DNA of 37,927 nt from a virus (taxonomy: Duplodnaviria; Caudoviricetes): positions 1 to 37,927 of the IMG/VR virus record IMGVR_UViG_3300011337_000448; one strand, 5' to 3'. A program made the position numbers and the translations under genes. The notes beneath the pieces were generated by a model, which was not told the origin of the DNA, searched no databases, and saw only the letters and a list, made by a program, of their open reading frames with translations. This document shows positions 8,535-26,679 of the stretch, piece after piece (position 1 is the first letter of the stretch; each line of letters starts with the position of its first letter).

Positions 8535-8770
8535 GGTTTGTCTTCGTATGCGGCCTTGAGCGTTTCTGAAAGCTCAAGTGATTCAGCTCGGCATCGCAAG
8601 TAAGCTGCCCGTAGATCATTGCACCTCCACCGATGCGCCTCTATTTCCTCGTCGTTCATCTCAAAAGTTCTGGTGTTGAGCTTCATGACCCAATCTCTTC
8701 GGGCTGTAGCCGCTTTAAGATTGGCTTCGGTTCTCCGGTCGATTAGTTTTAAGTAGTCTTCGGGGGTCAT
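8531..8770 (-). CDS. Hypothetical protein
   Basis: 79 aa, ATGA-coupled to thyA and to the next ORF. Confidence 0.6.
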   Translation of the reverse strand: MTPEDYLKLIDRRTEANLKAATARRDWVMKLNTRTFEMNDEEIEAHRWRCNDLRAAYLRCRAESLELSETLKAAYEDKP

Positions 8771-10176
8771 ACAGCTACTGGCGCTTTAATCGCGGGGTGT
8801 GGGTTGTAATTCTCCAAAGTGATGTCCTCGAATTTAAAGTCGAAAATGCTTTTGATCTCGGGGTTGAGCGTAACCGTTGGAGGCGGCAGAATCGTCCTGT
8901 CCCGTTGAATGAAATAAGCGTCAACATGGTTTCTATAGAGGTGTAAATCTCCAAGGCTGTGGATGAATCGACCCGCACGGTAGCCGGTAACTTGCGCGAC
9001 CATCATAAGCAGGAGCGAATACGATGCTATGTTGTATGGAATTCCAATGTAGGCGTCAGCACTGCGTTGCATTAATTGAAGGTCCATGGTGCCATCTGTG
9101 TGGACGTATATCTGATAAAACGCATGGCAAGGAGGCAAAGCCATATTGTGTAAATCGCTTGGATCCCACGCGCTAACAATATGGCGGCGTCCGTATGGGT
9201 CAGCTTTGATGCTGTCGATTAGATTCTGGATCTGGTCGACTATTTTCCCGTCCACTGTGCGTAAATTTCTATATTGAGCACTATAAATAGGCCCAAGATC
9301 GCCGTCTTCAATCAATTTTAAACGGGGTAAAAGACCACAAAATTCAGCCACATCAAATTCCCATCCTTCAAATCGTTTGTTTGCCCCATAGGGCCTAGGA
9401 GTTCCATATTTTATGACTCTGTTTAAAGCAGATTTGGACATACCCGTCCTTCTTGCGGCTTCAGCTTGGCTAAGATATAACCTTGTTGTGCCCGTTAAGT
9501 CACGAACTAAAATAGGTTTTACGGTTCTAGTGTATATATGGTTTTCCTCAGCTTTAAGCCAAACACTAGTATTTGGTCCGTATTGATTTGCTCCGTAATA
9601 ATCTTTATCGAGGTCAAATCCTTTAGGGTTGTTGGCTCGATACCACCAATGCGGTATTTTCTGCACTCCTTTTATAAAAGACTCTACGTCGTGCCAATCA
9701 GGATGCACCGTCACTCCGACTGCCCCATAATAAGCGTACCTCGTATGGGTTGGGTCATAACACTTGTGCATCATTCTATGCCAAATAATAGAGAGGTCTC
9801 TTTCTATTGTGTCGGCCTTTGTATTAATTTTTGCGCGACTGAAATTTCCAGAATAAAGAGCTGGAACCGCTTTTCTTGGCTCAATTATTTCTATGTCGCG
9901 ATCAAGATTGTAGGGTCGACGCCAGTGATCCCAAATATGCACACCGTTATCTTGCAGATATTTGACGTTGGTGCTGCCACTGAGAAACCAAAGCAGCTCG
10001 TGGACAACGCTCTTCCAGTGAATTTTCTTTGTCGTCAGCAAAGGGAATCCGTCAGCAAGATCATAGACGACCTGCTTCCCAAAAAGCGACGACACGCCCG
10101 TGCCGGTGCGATCGGATCGCCATTCGCCTTCGGTGTAGACCTCAGCGAGAAGGTCGAGATATTTTTGTTCGTTCAT
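8767..10176 (-). CDS. thyA: Thymidylate synthase with in-frame endonuclease insertion
   Basis: DRTGTG, FPLLTTK, ELLWFL, GDLGPIY, RRHIVSAW, catalytic ALPPCH, QRSAD, PYN, HLY, C-terminal IKAPVAV; about 203 extra residues between IWDHW and EDGDLGP. Confidence 0.95.
   Translation of the reverse strand: MNEQKYLDLLAEVYTEGEWRSDRTGTGVSSLFGKQVVYDLADGFPLLTTKKIHWKSVVHELLWFLSGSTNVKYLQDNGVHIWDHWRRPYNLDRDIEIIEPRKAVPALYSGNFSRAKINTKADTIERDLSIIWHRMMHKCYDPTHTRYAYYGAVGVTVHPDWHDVESFIKGVQKIPHWWYRANNPKGFDLDKDYYGANQYGPNTSVWLKAEENHIYTRTVKPILVRDLTGTTRLYLSQAEAARRTGMSKSALNRVIKYGTPRPYGANKRFEGWEFDVAEFCGLLPRLKLIEDGDLGPIYSAQYRNLRTVDGKIVDQIQNLIDSIKADPYGRRHIVSAWDPSDLHNMALPPCHAFYQIYVHTDGTMDLQLMQRSADAYIGIPYNIASYSLLLMMVAQVTGYRAGRFIHSLGDLHLYRNHVDAYFIQRDRTILPPPTVTLNPEIKSIFDFKFEDITLENYNPHPAIKAPVAV
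9313..9921 (-). mobile_element. HNH-like homing endonuclease plus NUMOD1-type HTH inserted in frame in thyA
   Basis: W..MMHKCY.....YAYYG..GVTV...W...F, LDKD..YGPNT..W....EN, and YLSQAEAARRTGMSKSALNRVI; visibly AT-richer than the flanks. Boundaries approximate to a few codons. Confidence 0.8.
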
Positions 10177-10178
10177 AA

Positions 10179-10460
10179 TTAAGACCAAGTAAAATAAGAG
10201 TCATGAATGGCTTCGAGGGCCGTGTCATATGCCTTTGACGCAAATTGGGTATCGCTAGAATCCGCAGGCGTCCATGAAGGCACCCATTTGCCATCTTGCA
10301 ACTTTGCCCCGTGCCCTCCGCACGAGCCGCCTTCGTCGCAATACGATTGCTCTTTCTCGTCCCAAATATACGTGCGGTTAATGATATTGATCGGCTCGTA
10401 TTGATGCTCTTTATCCCAGTTAAATCGACGATGTTTGATAGTAATGGTTGGATTACTCAT
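10179..10460 (-). CDS. Hypothetical protein
   Basis: ATG (MSNPTIT) after an A/C-rich leader; stop 2 nt before the thyA start. Confidence 0.55.
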   Translation of the reverse strand: MSNPTITIKHRRFNWDKEHQYEPINIINRTYIWDEKEQSYCDEGGSCGGHGAKLQDGKWVPSWTPADSSDTQFASKAYDTALEAIHDSYFTWS

Positions 10461-10809: not shown

Positions 10810-11057
10810 AATTGTTTGTGTAAATGTGTTCTGATTTCCGTAAAATAGTCGCACAACTTATCGAGAGCCTGCGTGTGTTCGTATCTTTCGACAATGGCAA
10901 GGTGCCACTCCCGCGAGCCATGTGGGTAGTCGCGTGCGTAGAACTCGATGGCTTCCCATGCGTCTACAAAGTCCTTGAACGCACGAGCGGCTGCGTCGTA
11001 GTCGCGAATCAGTGCGGCCCGCGATGTGCCGCCGGAATGGATGGTTGGTAGAATCAT
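10806..11057 (-). CDS. Hypothetical protein
   Basis: MILPTIHSGGTSR...; ATGA overlaps at both ends. Confidence 0.6.
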   Translation of the reverse strand: MILPTIHSGGTSRAALIRDYDAAARAFKDFVDAWEAIEFYARDYPHGSREWHLAIVERYEHTQALDKLCDYFTEIRTHLHKQL

Positions 11058-11626
11058 GCTGTTGCTCTGTTGTGGATCGGATAGTGAAATCGGTATTTTG
11101 AAACGCGCGGCACTCGCACCACATCCGCAGTAGCTGGCACATTGCCTGCACGCCCGTATTTCTTGCCAGTATTGGCGTCTACATAGTCGCACCGTGGACT
11201 CTTGCGATCGTCATCGGGGCGTCCGTCCTGACTCCAGTTGGAGGCCTTGTAGATCGTGCCTGCGTGTCCTGCTGACGGATCGGCATAACTCACCAGATGT
11301 TCAACGTCGGCATGGTGTTTTTTTATGTAGCGAATACTCTGGCCAATTAGCCACGTTTCCGCGTTGCATGGGATGTGATCGAGCAAGTAGAGCCGCGCCA
11401 GCTCCCACGTCTTGCCCTTGTATCGCTTGTCTGATTGCATGGGAGGCGCTGAGTAAAGAATGCATCCCGACAGTTGATCATTGCAGAACATCGAGAGGCA
11501 AAGAAGGACAATGGCTGGCCGCTTCTTGAGGTAGTGCAGGCGTATGAAAGTATCGACTTGAGAGACGGAAGTTTTTTCAATGCGTGAAGCGGCGGCCCAT
11601 GATGAATCAAACTTGGAAGTGTTCAT
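11054..11626 (-). CDS. Mom-family adenine-modifying (methylcarbamoyl/GNAT-like) enzyme
   Basis: HYL...WELARLYL....NAETWLI..SI...VSYADPSAGHAGTIYKASNW...KYRF matches the motif pattern of phage Mu Mom-like proteins. Confidence 0.8.
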   Translation of the reverse strand: MNTSKFDSSWAAASRIEKTSVSQVDTFIRLHYLKKRPAIVLLCLSMFCNDQLSGCILYSAPPMQSDKRYKGKTWELARLYLLDHIPCNAETWLIGQSIRYIKKHHADVEHLVSYADPSAGHAGTIYKASNWSQDGRPDDDRKSPRCDYVDANTGKKYGRAGNVPATADVVRVPRVSKYRFHYPIHNRATA

Positions 11627-17108: not shown

Positions 17109-17770
17109 TAAGCGGAAAGGACGGCGGGAACGGAATAGCTGAGACCGTTGGCGGTGACAGTCAGCACGTCGTCAATAACGACGACACTCGTGTCAATCGG
17201 ACCAAATGTAGGATCTAGCACAGCATCGAAGCTGTAGAGGATGCCATTATAAACAAAGCTGGCCACGTCATCAATCACGCGGAATGCGCTCGATGTAGTG
17301 GCTGCGCCAGCAATTACGTCAAAGCTGTAGGTGCGTCCACTGAACGTGTAAGATGCCACCTCATCGACGACGCTAAACGTAATCGAGGTGTCTGGTTGCA
17401 GCGAAAGTGCGGATGGCTTTAGTTCCAGATTTCCGGCGCGCAGCGAGTACGGAAAGCCGTTTACATCAAGCCCACCGATCACGATCCAGAAATTGTTGCA
17501 GTTGACCTGCTCGCTGAGAGTTTGGTTCATCTGCGCCGCGCTGAATGTAAATGTCACGTTTGACCCGACAACTACGCCAGATGTTGAAGCAAGTGGAGCT
17601 GCTCCAGCCACCGCGCTTTCATACGGTCGTTTCCAAAGCTCCATGCGATACACCGACATCGCCGGCCCACCAGCAGGTATCGCAGCCGTGATGATCAATG
17701 GCGTGGTTGCGAAGACCGGAGCTAGTGCGAGGTCGTCGGTCGTCGGTGTGATTGAAATGGTTCGAGTCAT
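17108..17770 (-). CDS. Putative baseplate/fibre-anchoring protein with three C-terminal repeats
   Basis: ATG at 17770 overlaps the endolysin stop; repeats FSVVDEVASYTFSGRTYSF / FRVIDDVASFVYNGILYSF / VVVIDDVLTVTANGLSYSV. Confidence 0.6.
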   Translation of the reverse strand: MTRTISITPTTDDLALAPVFATTPLIITAAIPAGGPAMSVYRMELWKRPYESAVAGAAPLASTSGVVVGSNVTFTFSAAQMNQTLSEQVNCNNFWIVIGGLDVNGFPYSLRAGNLELKPSALSLQPDTSITFSVVDEVASYTFSGRTYSFDVIAGAATTSSAFRVIDDVASFVYNGILYSFDAVLDPTFGPIDTSVVVIDDVLTVTANGLSYSVPAVLSA

Positions 17771-18327
17771 TTGGTCGCTTGAAAGTGCATCGCATCCCGC
17801 CCCCAGAACGCCCCCGCAGAGAGCCAGCCGCCGACAGCAAAGAATTCCATCACTTCGAGCGGCATCTGCGCTACAACGGGCCATTGCGTGCGATTGCCGT
17901 TTACCTGCGGCCAGAAGTCAATCGCCGCACCGCGTGCATGAAGCGATGGACGGGTGCCGTGCCGCATTAGGCGATCATTGTAACAACCGGCGTATTCTGC
18001 CGCAATATGCGGGAAGCACTCGCACACCGCCTCAAGGATGTGGCCAAGCGACCGCGCCACCTTCTTGTGGCATGTGATGCTCTTGACCTTCTTGCCGTCG
18101 TACTTCAAACAGAGATCCGCGACAGGCAGTTGAACGAGCTGACTCGGATCTCCCGGCGATCCATAGAACTTTTGCAAAGACACCTCATCTTGCGCTGGCC
18201 ACTGGTTCGGTTGCGCGACCATCTTCCGCAGGTGATCTTGGCACGCCTTGATCGAGACCGGTCCCCAGAATCCATCTGGTGTGACGCCGATCTTTTCCTG
18301 CATTAGTTGGATGTCGCGACGGGTCAT
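17767..18327 (-). CDS. Endolysin, M15-family Zn peptidase with short PG-binding N-terminus
   Basis: Q..IGVTPDGFWGP; GCYNDR...SLHARGAAID...GRDAMHFQ. Confidence 0.85.
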   Translation of the reverse strand: MTRRDIQLMQEKIGVTPDGFWGPVSIKACQDHLRKMVAQPNQWPAQDEVSLQKFYGSPGDPSQLVQLPVADLCLKYDGKKVKSITCHKKVARSLGHILEAVCECFPHIAAEYAGCYNDRLMRHGTRPSLHARGAAIDFWPQVNGNRTQWPVVAQMPLEVMEFFAVGGWLSAGAFWGRDAMHFQATK

Positions 18328-18425
18328 GGGGCAAATGATTTTAACATCCAGTAAAGCACGAGGAGCCAAGAAGCGACAAGCGCGATGGCGGTTAAAAGTT
18401 GGCCGACGTGCTTTAGCGTAGTCAT
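18324..18425 (-). CDS. Very small membrane peptide (33 aa)
   Basis: MTTLKHVGQLLTAIALVASWLLVLYWMLKSFAP; overlaps the stop/start of both neighbours. Confidence 0.5.
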   Translation of the reverse strand: MTTLKHVGQLLTAIALVASWLLVLYWMLKSFAP

Positions 18426-19252: not shown

Positions 19253-19539
19253 TACGGATTCAGCTTCCTGTCAATTTTGTCGAGCTTCTCCACTATCGAA
19301 CGCAGCAGTTGCGTGTCCGCAGAATCTTTTAACTCCAAAGCGCGAATGGCTGCCACATCAGCAGTCCGCAGCTTGGCCACCTCTTCAACTTTCTGTTCGT
19401 GCGAGTTAATGCGAATCTGGATTGTAGTGACCCAGACGCCTAGACCAAAAGCGCCAAGCAGCAGCCCTTGGCCAACTTTGACCACGAGATTAAGGTCTCG
19501 CAGCCGCTCCTCCAGCTCTTCAAGTTGTGTGGGATTCAT
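19252..19539 (-). CDS. Single-TM coiled-coil protein (holin/antiholin/i-spanin candidate)
   Basis: TM VGQGLLLGAFGLGVWV followed by heptads ending EKLDKIDRKL; first gene of the lysis cluster. Confidence 0.6.
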   Translation of the reverse strand: MNPTQLEELEERLRDLNLVVKVGQGLLLGAFGLGVWVTTIQIRINSHEQKVEEVAKLRTADVAAIRALELKDSADTQLLRSIVEKLDKIDRKLNP

Positions 19540-19568
19540 GAGGTAGTTGGGCGTCCACCTCCTTGTTC

Positions 19569-19631
19569 TTAGCCAGCAGGATTTGAACCTGCTACGCAAT
19601 AGCGAAGGATTGCGTGGGCCGCCCCGGCCAA
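19569..19631 (-). ncRNA. tRNA-like cloverleaf element (non-canonical)
   Basis: UUGGCCG/UGGCUAA acceptor-like stem, GGG-CGG-CCC mini arm, ACGCAAU-CCUUCGCU-AUUGCGU arm, canonical T arm GCAGG-UUCAAAU-CCUGC. Confidence 0.6.
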
Positions 19632-19635
19632 GGTG

Positions 19636-20118
19636 TTATGGAAGGACGGTTGGTGACCCGTAAGCGACAACGCTCACCGTATAGCCGACGCCGGGAGGCG
19701 TGATGGTTAAGACTTCCGCTGCGGTTGAATTGGCCGCATTTGGGTTGTAAATGTTGAACACGCCCCCGACTCCGACATTAATTGATGTAAACGTGACTTT
19801 GCCGAACCCTGTGCAGGCCACCGCAACTGACCCATTAGCTGGCCCAGCCACGGAAATCATGTATCCCAGCACACGCGCCGGAACAATGGTTGCGCGTGTG
19901 ATAGGATCGAGCTGAACAACACTGTTGACCGTAATGTTTGCGGCACTGCCGCCAATCGTGATCGTATTAGCCGAAGCGGCAGTGAACTCAGCCGCAACGC
20001 TCCATTGATTGGCAAGCGAGACGTTAATCGGTGGCACCGAATGCGCAATCGGAGCACGGGTCGCGCTACCGGCAAACGAGTTCTGGAGGACGGTGGAAAG
20101 TTTAAATGTAGATGGCAT
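19636..20118 (-). CDS. Putative minor tail protein
   Basis: 160 aa beta-rich; paralogous to 20123-20869. Confidence 0.7.
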   Translation of the reverse strand: MPSTFKLSTVLQNSFAGSATRAPIAHSVPPINVSLANQWSVAAEFTAASANTITIGGSAANITVNSVVQLDPITRATIVPARVLGYMISVAGPANGSVAVACTGFGKVTFTSINVGVGGVFNIYNPNAANSTAAEVLTITPPGVGYTVSVVAYGSPTVLP

Positions 20119-20891: not shown

Positions 20892-21767
20892 TTAGATGAA
20901 TGTCACGCTTGGAAGGCTTAAAAACACCGATCCGACTTGATGATGGGTGATGGTCGATCCGGATCGCGTCAGCAAGCGCAGATATGCAGTGGTCGCGCTT
21001 CCTGTGGGAGGACTTCCGTAAACCTGAAACGACGCACCCGATACCGTCCACCGGCGGATCTGCGCTGCCGCTTTCGTGTAGTTTTGAAAGGAGACCGACA
21101 ATCCGGATTCTCCACCTTCACCGTATCCGCCTTGACCTCCATCTCCTCCGTTTTCTCCACCTGATCCGGGTGAATTTGTCCCAGCCGGTCCACCAGCGCC
21201 ACCTGTGCCGGGAGAACCACTTGATCCATTAGCACCAGCCGTGCCGTTTCCTCCGTCGCCTCCTGTAGTCATTGCTCCTGCCCCACCGCCACCGCCACCG
21301 CCACCACCACCCCCCGTGCCACCGATTACGGTCAGTGTCTGCTGATCCGCAGCTGAGAGTGCCCCGATCACCGGGTTTGTTGTCGGCGTGATTGTGATCT
21401 GAAGCCAGATCGAGAAACCATCAGCCACCGCCAAAGTTGCACCGGCCACAGTCGCCACTGATTCAGTCCAGCCGCCGCTACTCGGATCGTTTGGCATGTA
21501 TGTGCTCCACGATGTGCCTAGCACTTTGCCACCGCGAATTGTCACGTCACCGCCAGAGAGCGTACCAGTAAAATCAATCACGCTGGCTGTCGTCGTCGCA
21601 CGCCCTGCTTGTGACGTGATGATTATCCCGTCGTTTGTCTCTTGCAGGATGATGCCAGCGCCTTCAATCGGCACCTGCTCATAAAGCGCCTTGCGAAACA
21701 GGTTCAGCGTCTTCCCTTTCAGGAAGTAGTGCAGATTGCCGAAGAATTTGGGAAAATCAGGGAACAA
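20892..21767 (-). CDS. Glycine-rich tail protein, paralogue 3
   Basis: MFPDFP..., poly-Gly/GGxGG block, C-terminal ITHHQVGSVFLSLPSVTFI. Confidence 0.75.
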   Translation of the reverse strand: MFPDFPKFFGNLHYFLKGKTLNLFRKALYEQVPIEGAGIILQETNDGIIITSQAGRATTTASVIDFTGTLSGGDVTIRGGKVLGTSWSTYMPNDPSSGGWTESVATVAGATLAVADGFSIWLQITITPTTNPVIGALSAADQQTLTVIGGTGGGGGGGGGGGAGAMTTGGDGGNGTAGANGSSGSPGTGGAGGPAGTNSPGSGGENGGDGGQGGYGEGGESGLSVSFQNYTKAAAQIRRWTVSGASFQVYGSPPTGSATTAYLRLLTRSGSTITHHQVGSVFLSLPSVTFI

Positions 21768-22656
21768 AGGCGCTTATGTAGGTGGTTGCTGGAAGCGTTA
21801 CGTGGTAGGAACCCGCATGGTATTGAGTCACTACGCCGCCGGTCTGTGATGCGATACGCACGTAAATGTTGGTGGCTGGCGAGGCGGTTGGCTTGGTTGT
21901 GTGTACTTCCAAGCTCGCAGACGTGATCTGCCACCTACGAAAAACCATCAAGAGCTTCGTGTACTGCGTGAAGGATTTCGCCTCGCCGTCTCCACCAGCC
22001 GCACCATTCCCGCCGTCTCCGCCTTCTGCTGCTGTCCCTGAATTAAAACTTGATGAAGGAACGGTTCCGCCGGGCGTGTAATAACCCGGATCGCCACCAG
22101 TTTGACCAGATGCTGATTGCCCGGTGTTGCCATTAGATCCAACAGATCCATCACCGCCAGCGCCGCCGCCCCCAGCGTCACCACCCGCACCCCCGCCGCC
22201 GGTTGTGACTGTGATCGTACTCGCGCCAGTCGCCGAGAGTGTGCCGTTCATTTCCACATCCGTCTGCGAGCACTGGATGCGCAGCCACACGCTTTGCCCG
22301 TCGGTCACCGTGAGCGTGGACGGTCCGACAGTAAACTGCTCCGCCAGCCAGTCTGTCGGCAATGGATCGCTCATGGTTGGCGTCCCCCACGTTGTGCCAA
22401 TCACTCGGCCTGCTGTGATGTCGAGTGAGTTGGTGGCCGGGAGCGACGCCTTAAAGTCATGGTTGATGCTGATCGTCGGCGATGTCTGGATCGCTTGATC
22501 CGCGTGGAGTAGGATGCCAGCGTTCGTCTCCTCCATCCGCAGGTTGTCGCCAGCGATTGGTGTCTGAAGTCTGATCCGCTGCACGATCCTCTCCAGCATC
22601 TTGCCGGTCAGGATGTGCACGTCGCCAAGGTTGAAGTTGGGAATGTCTGGCAGCAT
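21757..22656 (-). CDS. Glycine-rich tail protein, paralogue 2
   Basis: MLPDIP..., same architecture as its neighbours. Confidence 0.75.
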   Translation of the reverse strand: MLPDIPNFNLGDVHILTGKMLERIVQRIRLQTPIAGDNLRMEETNAGILLHADQAIQTSPTISINHDFKASLPATNSLDITAGRVIGTTWGTPTMSDPLPTDWLAEQFTVGPSTLTVTDGQSVWLRIQCSQTDVEMNGTLSATGASTITVTTGGGGAGGDAGGGGAGGDGSVGSNGNTGQSASGQTGGDPGYYTPGGTVPSSSFNSGTAAEGGDGGNGAAGGDGEAKSFTQYTKLLMVFRRWQITSASLEVHTTKPTASPATNIYVRIASQTGGVVTQYHAGSYHVTLPATTYISAFVP

Positions 22657-23534
22657 TAGGCGATGATAAAGGTGATGGCCGGTGGTGTGATCGAGATCAT
22701 GCCGACGACGTGCTGCGTAATGCTGGTGCCACTAATGGACGCCAACTGAATCCACGATGACGCCTCGCTTGCTGTGCCTTTTGATGTGTGTAGCGAGATG
22801 CCGTTGATTGTCCACTTGCGGATCTGTGCGGTTCCCTTTGTCCTGCGGGTGAATGTGACACTGCCCCCCGCACCGCCTGCACCGCCGTATCCACCTGCAC
22901 CGCCGCTCGCCCCGTAGCTGTTGCCGAGCCCGGTTACTCTAGTTGGAGGTGTTGTGGTAATATCTTCCACTATACCTCCAGCTCCGCCAATTCCGGTAAA
23001 ATCTCCACTATCTCCGCCAGAACCTAATCGCCCTTGGATATCTGGAAGCAGTCCGCTCGCCGCACCGCCGCCACCACCACCTCCCCCGCGTCCACCTTTT
23101 GCGCCCGATATGTCGTAGGTGGTTGTGCCGAGCGGCCCGGTCGTAGTGGTATCGCTCTCCGACCATAAAACCTGCAACCAGACCTGTGAGACAGTGCCGC
23201 TGAGTGAGCCTCCGATATAGTTGACCTCTCGCTGCCAGTCGCCCGGCGTTGGATTATCGCCGAGGATCGCGCCCCAGAGCGGGTAGATGATCTTGCCTGC
23301 CGCTACCACCACCGATGTCCCATCTAACGACACGGCGAAGCCTAGAGCAAAAGGAGCCACCACGCCGCCTGACCCCACGCGGTCGATAATCTGTCCATCC
23401 TTTGTCTCTGTGATTGTGACGGTCTCCGACGAGATTAACCGCTGTAAACGGATGCGATCCACCAAACGGTTGAGCAGCCACCCGGACCGCGCACCGTTCA
23501 CCTTTGGGTCGATGACTGGAAGATCTGGCAGCAT
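22656..23534 (-). CDS. Glycine-rich tail protein, paralogue 1
   Basis: MLPDLP..., same architecture as its neighbours. Confidence 0.75.
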   Translation of the reverse strand: MLPDLPVIDPKVNGARSGWLLNRLVDRIRLQRLISSETVTITETKDGQIIDRVGSGGVVAPFALGFAVSLDGTSVVVAAGKIIYPLWGAILGDNPTPGDWQREVNYIGGSLSGTVSQVWLQVLWSESDTTTTGPLGTTTYDISGAKGGRGGGGGGGGAASGLLPDIQGRLGSGGDSGDFTGIGGAGGIVEDITTTPPTRVTGLGNSYGASGGAGGYGGAGGAGGSVTFTRRTKGTAQIRKWTINGISLHTSKGTASEASSWIQLASISGTSITQHVVGMISITPPAITFIIA

Positions 23535-25970: not shown

Positions 25971-25990
25971 GAAATCACTCGTTATGTCAA
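25968..25990 (-). promoter_or_regulatory. TTGACA-N14-ATG motif (copy 2)
   Basis: TGTCAATTCA TTGACA TAACGAGTGATTTC ATG. Confidence 0.7.
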
Positions 25991-26239
25991 TGAATTGACA
26001 AGGCGGTTCGACTTCCGCCGCTGGATGTAATCCATGGCGCTGCGGATCGTCTCATCCTCCATCATGTCATGGCCGACCCACTGGGTTTCGATACCCTGTT
26101 GGATCAATGCCATGTGCAGGTAAGCCAACCCGCGCGCAAGCGGCAGCTCCCACAGAATCTCTTGTTCGGTCAGTCCCGTAATGGGTCGCACTAGCGAGAC
26201 GTAATGGGCCTGAAAGACCGGACTGGCTAACGCTTTCCC
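25982..26239 (-). CDS. Tail assembly chaperone, frameshifted (gpT-like) part
   Basis: The -1 frame from GGGAAAG reads GKALASPVFQAHYVSLVRPITGLTEQEILWELPL... open to 25982. Confidence 0.8.
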   Translation of the reverse strand, partial: GKALASPVFQAHYVSLVRPITGLTEQEILWELPLARGLAYLHMALIQQGIETQWVGHDMMEDETIRSAMDYIQRRKSNRLVNSLT

Positions 26240-26679
26240 TCGCCGCCGGCTGTAGGCACCACCTCGGATTGATTGGCTGTCGAGTCGTTCAGGATGCGCA
26301 GACCAAGGCTGATTGCGTCGCGTTCTTCCGAGATCTTAATGTTGGCGTCGATCCAATCATCGCACGCATCAATCAACGCTTGGATGCCTTGCGCTCGCAG
26401 CTTTCGGAGTTGTGCTGTTGGCGTGATGCAGACAAAGATCAGCACCTTGCTGAGTGGTGCGAATAGCGAGAACTCGTCGAAACAAGCGTCTAGCGAAGGA
26501 AAGCCTGACTTGTGGCACATCGACACCCATATGTCTTTACGCGAGCAAGACACACCCTCAAATTCTTTCCCCTTCCACTGGTACGCCGCATTGAATGCGT
26601 CCGTCCTGCGTTGCTCCTGCTCGTTTGGCAGGTCAATTAGTGAAATACCGTCGTCCTCTTGTGTTTGAATGTCGATCAT
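26227..26679 (-). CDS. Tail assembly chaperone (gpG-like)
   Basis: Ends ...GAG GGA AAG CGT TAG with slippery G GGA AAG; upstream of the tape measure. Confidence 0.8.
   Translation of the reverse strand: MIDIQTQEDDGISLIDLPNEQEQRRTDAFNAAYQWKGKEFEGVSCSRKDIWVSMCHKSGFPSLDACFDEFSLFAPLSKVLIFVCITPTAQLRKLRAQGIQALIDACDDWIDANIKISEERDAISLGLRILNDSTANQSEVVPTAGGEGKR
26233..26239 (-). other. Programmed -1 ribosomal frameshift site GGGAAAG
   Basis: Same heptamer as lambda G/T, in X XXY YYZ phase, joining two ORFs. Confidence 0.85.

Follow-up and report, generated by a model that had tools for sequence, protein, structure and literature searches.

A compact tRNA-like element in two alternative forms at the tail/lysis boundary of a group of aquatic phages

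At a site between their tail and lysis genes, related aquatic phages share a compact tRNA-like cloverleaf that is conserved in structure and occurs in two alternative forms (here A and B). The window analyzed here is the entire viral record IMGVR_UViG_3300011337_000448 (37,927 bases), and the element it contains is neither a canonical tRNA nor a tmRNA nor a member of an Rfam family. While tRNA mimics and phage substrates of RNase P are already known, a family of them that shows covariation, comes in two alleles and keeps its loop fixed at the tail/lysis boundary is new; no bacterial-virus RNA of the compact mascRNA layout was found in Rfam or in the literature searched, which lay mostly outside subscription papers. 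In the explanation that we consider best, with a probability of about 0.4, RNase P releases the element from the late mRNA and the exposed loop acts as bait for a tRNA-binding host protein, the bait role being the weakest of the inferred parts.

Phage Genome and Position of the Element

The annotated genes of the window lie on the minus strand in the order terminase, portal, major capsid, tape measure, tail block, lysis cassette and replication genes, with an M15 endolysin in the lysis cassette between the tail block and the replication genes. The capsid protein had a single match among 50,697 GenBank phages, Akkermansia phage Chantilly (33%), and its best match in genomes was to a Verrucomicrobiia MAG (40%), followed by a planctomycete (36%). 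Because of the matches to Akkermansia phage Chantilly and the Verrucomicrobiia MAG, a host within the Verrucomicrobia is likely. The original prediction placed the element before the lysis genes. The cassette itself stands as lytic, but a holin label for the first gene (95 aa) is unsupported; this protein had no Pfam or PHROG match, and an atlas search named no family for it. The 160-aa gene upstream of the element likewise had no family match (Pfam/PHROG). The features of the region are as follows.

19636..20118 (-): 160-aa gene, last of the tail block (by position), upstream neighbour of the element
19569..19631 (-): mini-cloverleaf, form A, 63 nt (69.5 bits, joint model R2)
19625..19631 (-): acceptor-like stem, 5' strand; first pair U1-A72 in forms A and B
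19616..19624 (-): D-like mini-hairpin, 9 nt, 3 bp; loop GG invariant, preceding base variable
19594..19615 (-): anticodon-like arm, 22 nt in forms A and B
19600..19609 (-): 10-nt anticodon-like loop, holding CU-UCG, invariant in 16/16 form-A loci
19576..19592 (-): T arm, stem of 5 bp and tRNA-type loop of 7 nt
19569..19575 (-): acceptor-like stem, 3' strand; pairing kept via G-U in variants
19568..19568 (-): position 73, G in the window; C, G or U across form A
19540..19561 (-): leader hairpin (predicted), running up to the 95-aa gene's start codon
19252..19539 (-): opening gene of the lysis cassette, encoding a 95-aa protein with a single predicted membrane segment
17767..18369 (-): endolysin ORF, M15 peptidase (phrog_17001, E 1.9e-22; PF13539)

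Several other genes of the window have features of their own. The endolysin (17767-18369, minus strand) and its relatives fall into two deeply split alleles, independent of element form. A Mom-like DNA modification protein (phrog_1384; 11054-11626, minus strand) is a possible second counter-defence gene, and the thymidylate synthase (8767-10188, minus strand) carries an in-frame HNH-like segment at residues ~122-260, which may be an inserted homing endonuclease, either intein-like or fused. Within the tail block are three tandem paralogous glycine-rich genes of 291-299 aa without a family match (20892-23534, minus strand). The 150-aa gene upstream of the tape measure has a terminal GGGAAAG (26227-26250, minus strand), which we take to be the slippery heptamer of lambda G-T. 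An ORF in an overlapping frame comes next (25982-26191, minus strand), and a tail-chaperone -1 frameshift is likely here.

Anatomy and Detectability of the Element

The 63-nt tRNA-like cloverleaf was confirmed in both coordinates and anatomy (19569..19631, minus strand). It begins 4 nt past the upstream stop codon (19636-19638), within a 96-nt gap, and is single-copy in the window according to joint model R2. The acceptor-like stem has 7 bp (19625-19631 with 19569-19575), two of them G-U pairs, and the anticodon-like arm has 6 bp and a 10-nt loop, to which form A adds a seventh pair, leaving 8 nt unpaired. A single 1-nt linker lies between this arm and the T stem in the window. Compared with canonical tRNA, the full D arm, the 8/9 linker, the variable loop and the 7-nt anticodon loop are missing, and the dimensions differ accordingly (9-10-nt D hairpin, 0-1-nt linkers and an 8-10-nt loop). 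The canonical tRNA T arm (5 bp, UUCRANY loop), stacked on a 7-bp acceptor, is shown by all 16 form-A loci.

Both the minimum free energy and the centroid fold gave the four-arm cloverleaf, in a register of 6+6 bp rather than 7+5, with a modest folding energy (z -2.15; 7 of 200 shuffles equally good). A descriptor of the T arm and 7-bp coaxial stem, designed after the element had been seen, matched the window once, at the element; 3 of 1000 dinucleotide-shuffled whole windows matched it, and 1 of 1000 when the inner hairpin was also required. That tRNA finders would overlook the element had been anticipated, and ARAGORN at default settings called nothing there, while at a relaxed threshold the element was one of 11 calls in the window. 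An Rfam scan of the element gave no match at gathering cut-offs, the best sub-threshold match being tRNA-Sec (18.6 bits vs. a cut-off of 47), and no family model of tmRNA, YrlA or tRNA-Sec matched at the element in Rfam or ARAGORN. The canonical tRNA model (RF00005) had no match in four of four genomes, and the mascRNA-menRNA model (RF01684) had none at the element in four genomes. A coding role was also considered and rejected, since a 115-aa extension from a TTG start across the element is broken by changes of leader length in relatives.

Conservation in Related Phages and Two Forms

Using the upstream protein as query, loci were collected from IMG/VR (17) and metagenomes (28); 2 of these 45 stop short of the tail-gene stop, and 43 are informative. 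All 43 have a mini-cloverleaf a few bases past the upstream stop, which is of form A in 16 and form B in 27. These loci are non-independent, with one identical to the window over the stretch and one duplicating another contig, and the distinct sequences including flanks number 9 for form A and 13 for form B. An exact-pattern search recovered form A in 7 and form B in 10 viral contigs, all within the 43-locus set, and the copy number was one in each of five genomes searched (one of them to base 40,000 of 40,349).

Form B differs from form A in most of its sequence but shares its geometry, and its encoded 3' end is RCCA. Anatomy was compared in 16 A and 26 B loci, the window replacing its twin and the duplicate being dropped. 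Both forms open with the U1-A72 pair and have a D hairpin of 3 bp whose loop holds GG, an anticodon-like arm of 22 nt, a T stem of 5 bp and linkers of 0-1 base. The RCCA end was present in 26/26 form-B loci (six of them by hand reading) and in 0/16 form-A loci, and the absence of an encoded CCA from the window's element, as originally described, holds. Acceptor and T stems of 7 and 5 bp were found in 16/16 A and 6/26 B loci, and the other 20 B loci have six acceptor pairs after U1-A72. In both forms the T-loop varies at positions 57 (a purine) and 59 only, and variation of the T-loop and D-loop is confined to what tRNA rules permit.

Within form B alone, 99.4% of cells were paired, compared with at most 48.6% in slid controls, and 4 of 21 pairs had changed on both sides. 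Of 500 shuffles used as a control, 113 had as many covarying pairs, so that this count is not exceptional, and none equalled the cell-level pairing measures. RNAalifold predicted the cloverleaf from form B unprompted. A covariance model built from form B only, run with filters off, found 12/12 A loci at 15-21 bits, its remaining matches being antisense reads of B elements only; with default filters, just 1 of 10 A sources was recovered. The two forms were not aligned in register by MAFFT. A joint alignment (A8) gave 15 of 20 covarying pairs, which are not independent evidence because the model itself shaped the alignment, in which the acceptor drifts out of register. Arm length and a loop ending in UA suggest a possible common ancestor of the two forms. 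The proposal of a conserved tRNA mimic, for which homologue and covariation analysis had been put forward as one of the checks, is thus borne out by synteny, covariation and tRNA-type loop constraints, with the structure conserved at every informative locus, and the element is under selection.

No third form was found in 26 loci from distant-homologue scans of the next gene (~16 of which truly encode a homologue) or in Akkermansia phage Chantilly and three genome loci. The same was true of 5 distant loci scanned without filters and of 28 loci scanned with filters at default, among which the close relatives did not extend as far as the site. Matches to the element in GenBank phages were all short and weak.

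Linkage to the Next Gene

Homologues of the 95-aa gene occur in 14 other viral contigs directly after a CHAP amidase gene, which they overlap (the CHAP identity was confirmed at one locus, the 13 others being alike by eye), and in two loci of a sister phage group, 3 nt after the preceding gene and with an endolysin homologue downstream. The element is absent from the 14 CHAP-group contigs and both sister-group loci; because homologues of the 95-aa gene lack it there, the cassette does not need it, and the element is a clade-specific addition rather than a requirement of the lysis cassette.

When mapped on gene trees, the form label changes at least five times on the upstream gene, as alternative alleles would. 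It changes once on the 95-aa gene when its N-terminal part is used (100/100), twice on the holin-like gene (where strong branches force only one) and three times on the endolysin. By these counts the element and its leader move as a single module with the beginning of the next gene, a linkage that may come from function or simply from where crossing-over is possible.

Two codon positions in the 95-aa gene were also conserved. CTG CGA at codons 13-14 (19498-19503 of the window, minus strand) is invariant in 14/14 form-A ORFs, and the rare codon ATA, at codon 82 in the window, is found at the homologous C-terminal position in 14/14 A and 14/19 B ORFs.

Invariance of the Anticodon-Like Loop

Differences in the 10-nt loop within each form were 0.000 for both A and B, while four-fold sites of the next gene differed by 0.365 (14 A loci) and 0.325 (19 B loci), and the 7 nt past the form-A acceptor vary freely. 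The loop triplets, each after a U, are UCG in form A and CAU, followed by A, in form B. By eye, the inner four stem pairs and UCAUA of the form-B arm are common to some Verrucomicrobiia CAU tRNAs. Pattern matches for host tRNAs that share the form-A anticodon stem did not rise above control level.

An invariant 10-nt loop is not explained by a pure processing signal, and we therefore infer a binder for it. The binder is favored by comparison with mascRNA, a processing by-product of like shape whose anticodon loop is described as not conserved (PMC9976931). Complements of the loop (7-10 nt), searched genome-wide, gave no target that is conserved and specific to one form. In the sense direction, the A loop recurs at unrelated sites in two of three A genomes, and the B loop in neither of two genomes. 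Three candidate interactions, namely pairing of the loop with the ribosome-binding region, pairing of the D hairpin with the leader, and short repeats of an anticodon-arm strand in the next gene, each fit some variants and never both forms, and were rejected.

In the window, an exact second copy of the form-A 10-nt loop lies at 26491-26500 (minus strand), inside the chaperone gene, with its last 9 bases kept in 2 other A loci and changed in 6 B loci. A second copy is in a different place in another A genome and absent from a third, and is probably due to chance.

Proposed Release by RNase P and Role as Bait

Substrate recognition by RNase P involves the T-loop, a 12-bp stack and RCCA, according to PMC10731613. 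The features kept in the element are those that RNase P reads, and release by this enzyme can therefore be proposed. An RNase P-type T-loop with a stack of ~12 bp is seen in both forms, with 12 bp in the A loci and 6 B loci; in the other 20 B loci the stack has 11 bp, or 11 bp and one unpaired base (just 11 bp in 7/26). The fit to the determinants of RNase P is imperfect in places: position N-1 is C in 16/16 A loci, which are without RCCA, and +1 is U in both forms, the reported optimum being G at +1 (PMC10731613). The encoded RCCA of form B, a form unseen in the original prediction, strengthens the case for RNase P.

Since a simple scan predicted no promoter or terminator in the 96-nt gap, the element would be co-transcribed with the tail and lysis genes. 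The GG of the D-loop would form an elbow with the T-loop, and host RNase P would cut 4-11 nt past the tail-gene stop, splitting tail from lysis mRNA as a by-product. The 3' end would be trimmed to the encoded CCA in form B, and in form A trimming would be followed by CCA addition. A step involving RNase Z is doubtful, since none of 61 genomes from the presumed host class passed the family cut-off for this enzyme, and the form-A 3' end would for this reason need another route. The expected product is an RNA of 63-67 nt that displays the invariant anticodon-like loop and is unlikely to decode, because the four-way junction has 0-1 linker nt and the loop has 8-10 nt. Its target would most likely be an anticodon nuclease or a similar defence effector, to which the loop would appear UCG-like (A) or CAU-like (B). 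A location in the late block is perhaps late for counter-defence, and the perfect linkage to the 5' part of the next gene may fit a role in cis equally. Two RNA-labelled runs (X1 and X2) contained 0.18 and 0.13 of the words, as contigs that give neither ends nor levels.

A more specific version, which we consider rather unlikely, is that of a mascRNA-shaped, non-decoding decoy family whose two alleles (Arg-UCG-like and Met/Ile2-CAU-like) would neutralize different tRNA-targeting defences and be kept as a balanced polymorphism.

Alternative Explanations

We favor the bait over control of lysis expression in cis, a close rival that is only slightly less probable. Here the RNase P cut would uncouple lysis from tail mRNA, and the loop, bound by a factor of phage or host or paired with the mRNA, would time translation of the first lysis gene. 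The element lies exactly at the tail/lysis boundary, 29 nt upstream of the start codon, its form tracks the 5' portion of the 95-aa gene rather than the upstream gene, and a hairpin is predicted over the initiation region in both forms. The invariant form-A codons 13-14 are complementary to four loop bases, but 6 of 26 four-fold columns are invariant anyway, and no long-range pairing is kept across variants or common to both forms. The linkage may merely mark where crossing-over is possible, and the 95-aa gene homologues in the 14 other contigs and the two sister-group loci are without the element.

A working minimal tRNA, reading a rare codon (CGA in A, AUA or AUG in B) or four bases, appears improbable. 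The D and anticodon stems could stack to ~10 pairs as in tRNA, form B could have a 7-nt loop U-CAU-A if one A bulges and encodes its CCA, and CGA is present at codon 14 in all form-A ORFs. However, neither ARAGORN nor RF00005 identified a tRNA, an L-shape is unlikely without the 8/9 linker or variable loop, the discriminator base is variable in both forms, and CGA and ATA usage did not differ by form (18 loci, by eye).

Still less probable is a decayed tRNA gene or attachment-site remnant without present function, a reading already largely refuted by the purifying selection on the element. Ancestry from a tRNA is nonetheless likely. In 48 of 301 genomes the form-A T arm and next bases match a host tRNA end with a single mismatch, and in none exactly; the match is generic (Arg, CAU and Leu tRNAs). 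Form B had no match in the 301, which represent the presumed host class and may not contain the true host. The form-B 3' half weakly matches a phage tRNA-Met (E 0.3). Neither form was found in 151 Verrucomicrobiia genomes, of which 106 had weak matches (maximum 31.7 bits); 34 candidates were scored per genome, and the top 30 among the matches listed were ordinary tRNAs, with 91 further matches beyond those listed. Of eight short genome matches checked, seven were inside called tRNAs and one resembled a tRNA remnant. No integrase was present among the 54 scanned ORFs of the window, nor by eye in the extra ORFs of four relatives. The element's conservation far above that of synonymous sites, its compensatory changes and the joint conservation of its 5' and 3' halves argue against decay. 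The original prediction had named a lack of conservation together with a lack of processing, a decayed tRNA and an attP site as outcomes that would speak against it; what was found instead is a conserved structure that is neither a decaying tRNA nor an attP site, with no integrase among the scanned ORFs and no exact tRNA end in the 301 genomes.

Least probable is a structure or site that acts as DNA, such as a cruciform or a signal for recombination or packaging, and merely resembles tRNA. This would suit the location at a recombination boundary between modules, but variants keep their pairing via G-U on the mRNA strand, where the opposite strand would have A-C, and the loop constraints obey tRNA elbow rules.

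Comparison With Known Systems

Lambdoid phages have Ile2-CAU and Arg-UCG tRNAs upstream of their lysis genes, the same two anticodons; these are full-length canonical tRNAs, unlike the mini element. Organellar t-elements are loosely conserved, whereas the loop of the phage element is fixed. YrlA and tmRNA are characterized by a Ro60-binding stem and a tag reading frame, respectively, and the phage element, at 63 nt in all, has neither. The tRNA-like folds of t-elements show where long transcripts are to be cut (PMC4919922), and in bacteria YrlA Y RNA and the tRNA-like domain of tmRNA mimic tRNA and are acted on by its enzymes (PMC10424219). The available portions of PMC10424219 and PMC7609411 describe no element such as the one reported here.

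The closest layout is that of mascRNA/menRNA (MALAT1, NEAT1; RF01684), with ~60 nt (a 58-nt sequence is given in PMC5824348), and RNase P and RNase Z are reported to free mascRNA from a longer transcript (PMC4919922, PMC12941219). By eye, the likeness extends to the 7-bp terminal stem, the D hairpin of 3 bp whose 4-nt loop contains GG, the tRNA-type T arm, the near absence of linkers and the compact four-arm layout. In contrast to the phage element, mascRNA is a vertebrate lncRNA product, its second hairpin has 17 nt rather than 22 and, as described, its anticodon loop is unconserved; together with the lack of a match to the RF01684 model, this makes the likeness at most a convergent layout. 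Small phage RNAs processed by host RNase P include phi80 M3 RNA and the C4 antisense RNA of P1/P7 (PMC11143913, PMC10731613); the four-arm layout, the position and the two-allele pattern are not seen in the accessible descriptions of these RNAs, by which, rather than by their sequences, they are set apart.

The two alleles separate the needs of shape (the elbow and the 11-12-bp stack) from the content of the loop and are a convenient starting point for experiments on how a minimal tRNA mimic works. If the bait role is true, phages would counter tRNA-targeting immunity with non-decoding decoys besides replacement tRNAs, and such decoys would escape annotation tools and tRNA finders. If the role in cis is true, the element would represent a lysis timer based on tRNA enzymes.

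In the sister phage group, a 105-nt gap follows the probable major capsid gene (L246:6268-6372 and L244:7223-7327; also in L245 and L248). It contains a long irregular hairpin ending in ACCA without a T-loop and then a GC-rich, terminator-like hairpin; its core is identical in four of four loci and is possibly another tRNA-end mimic.
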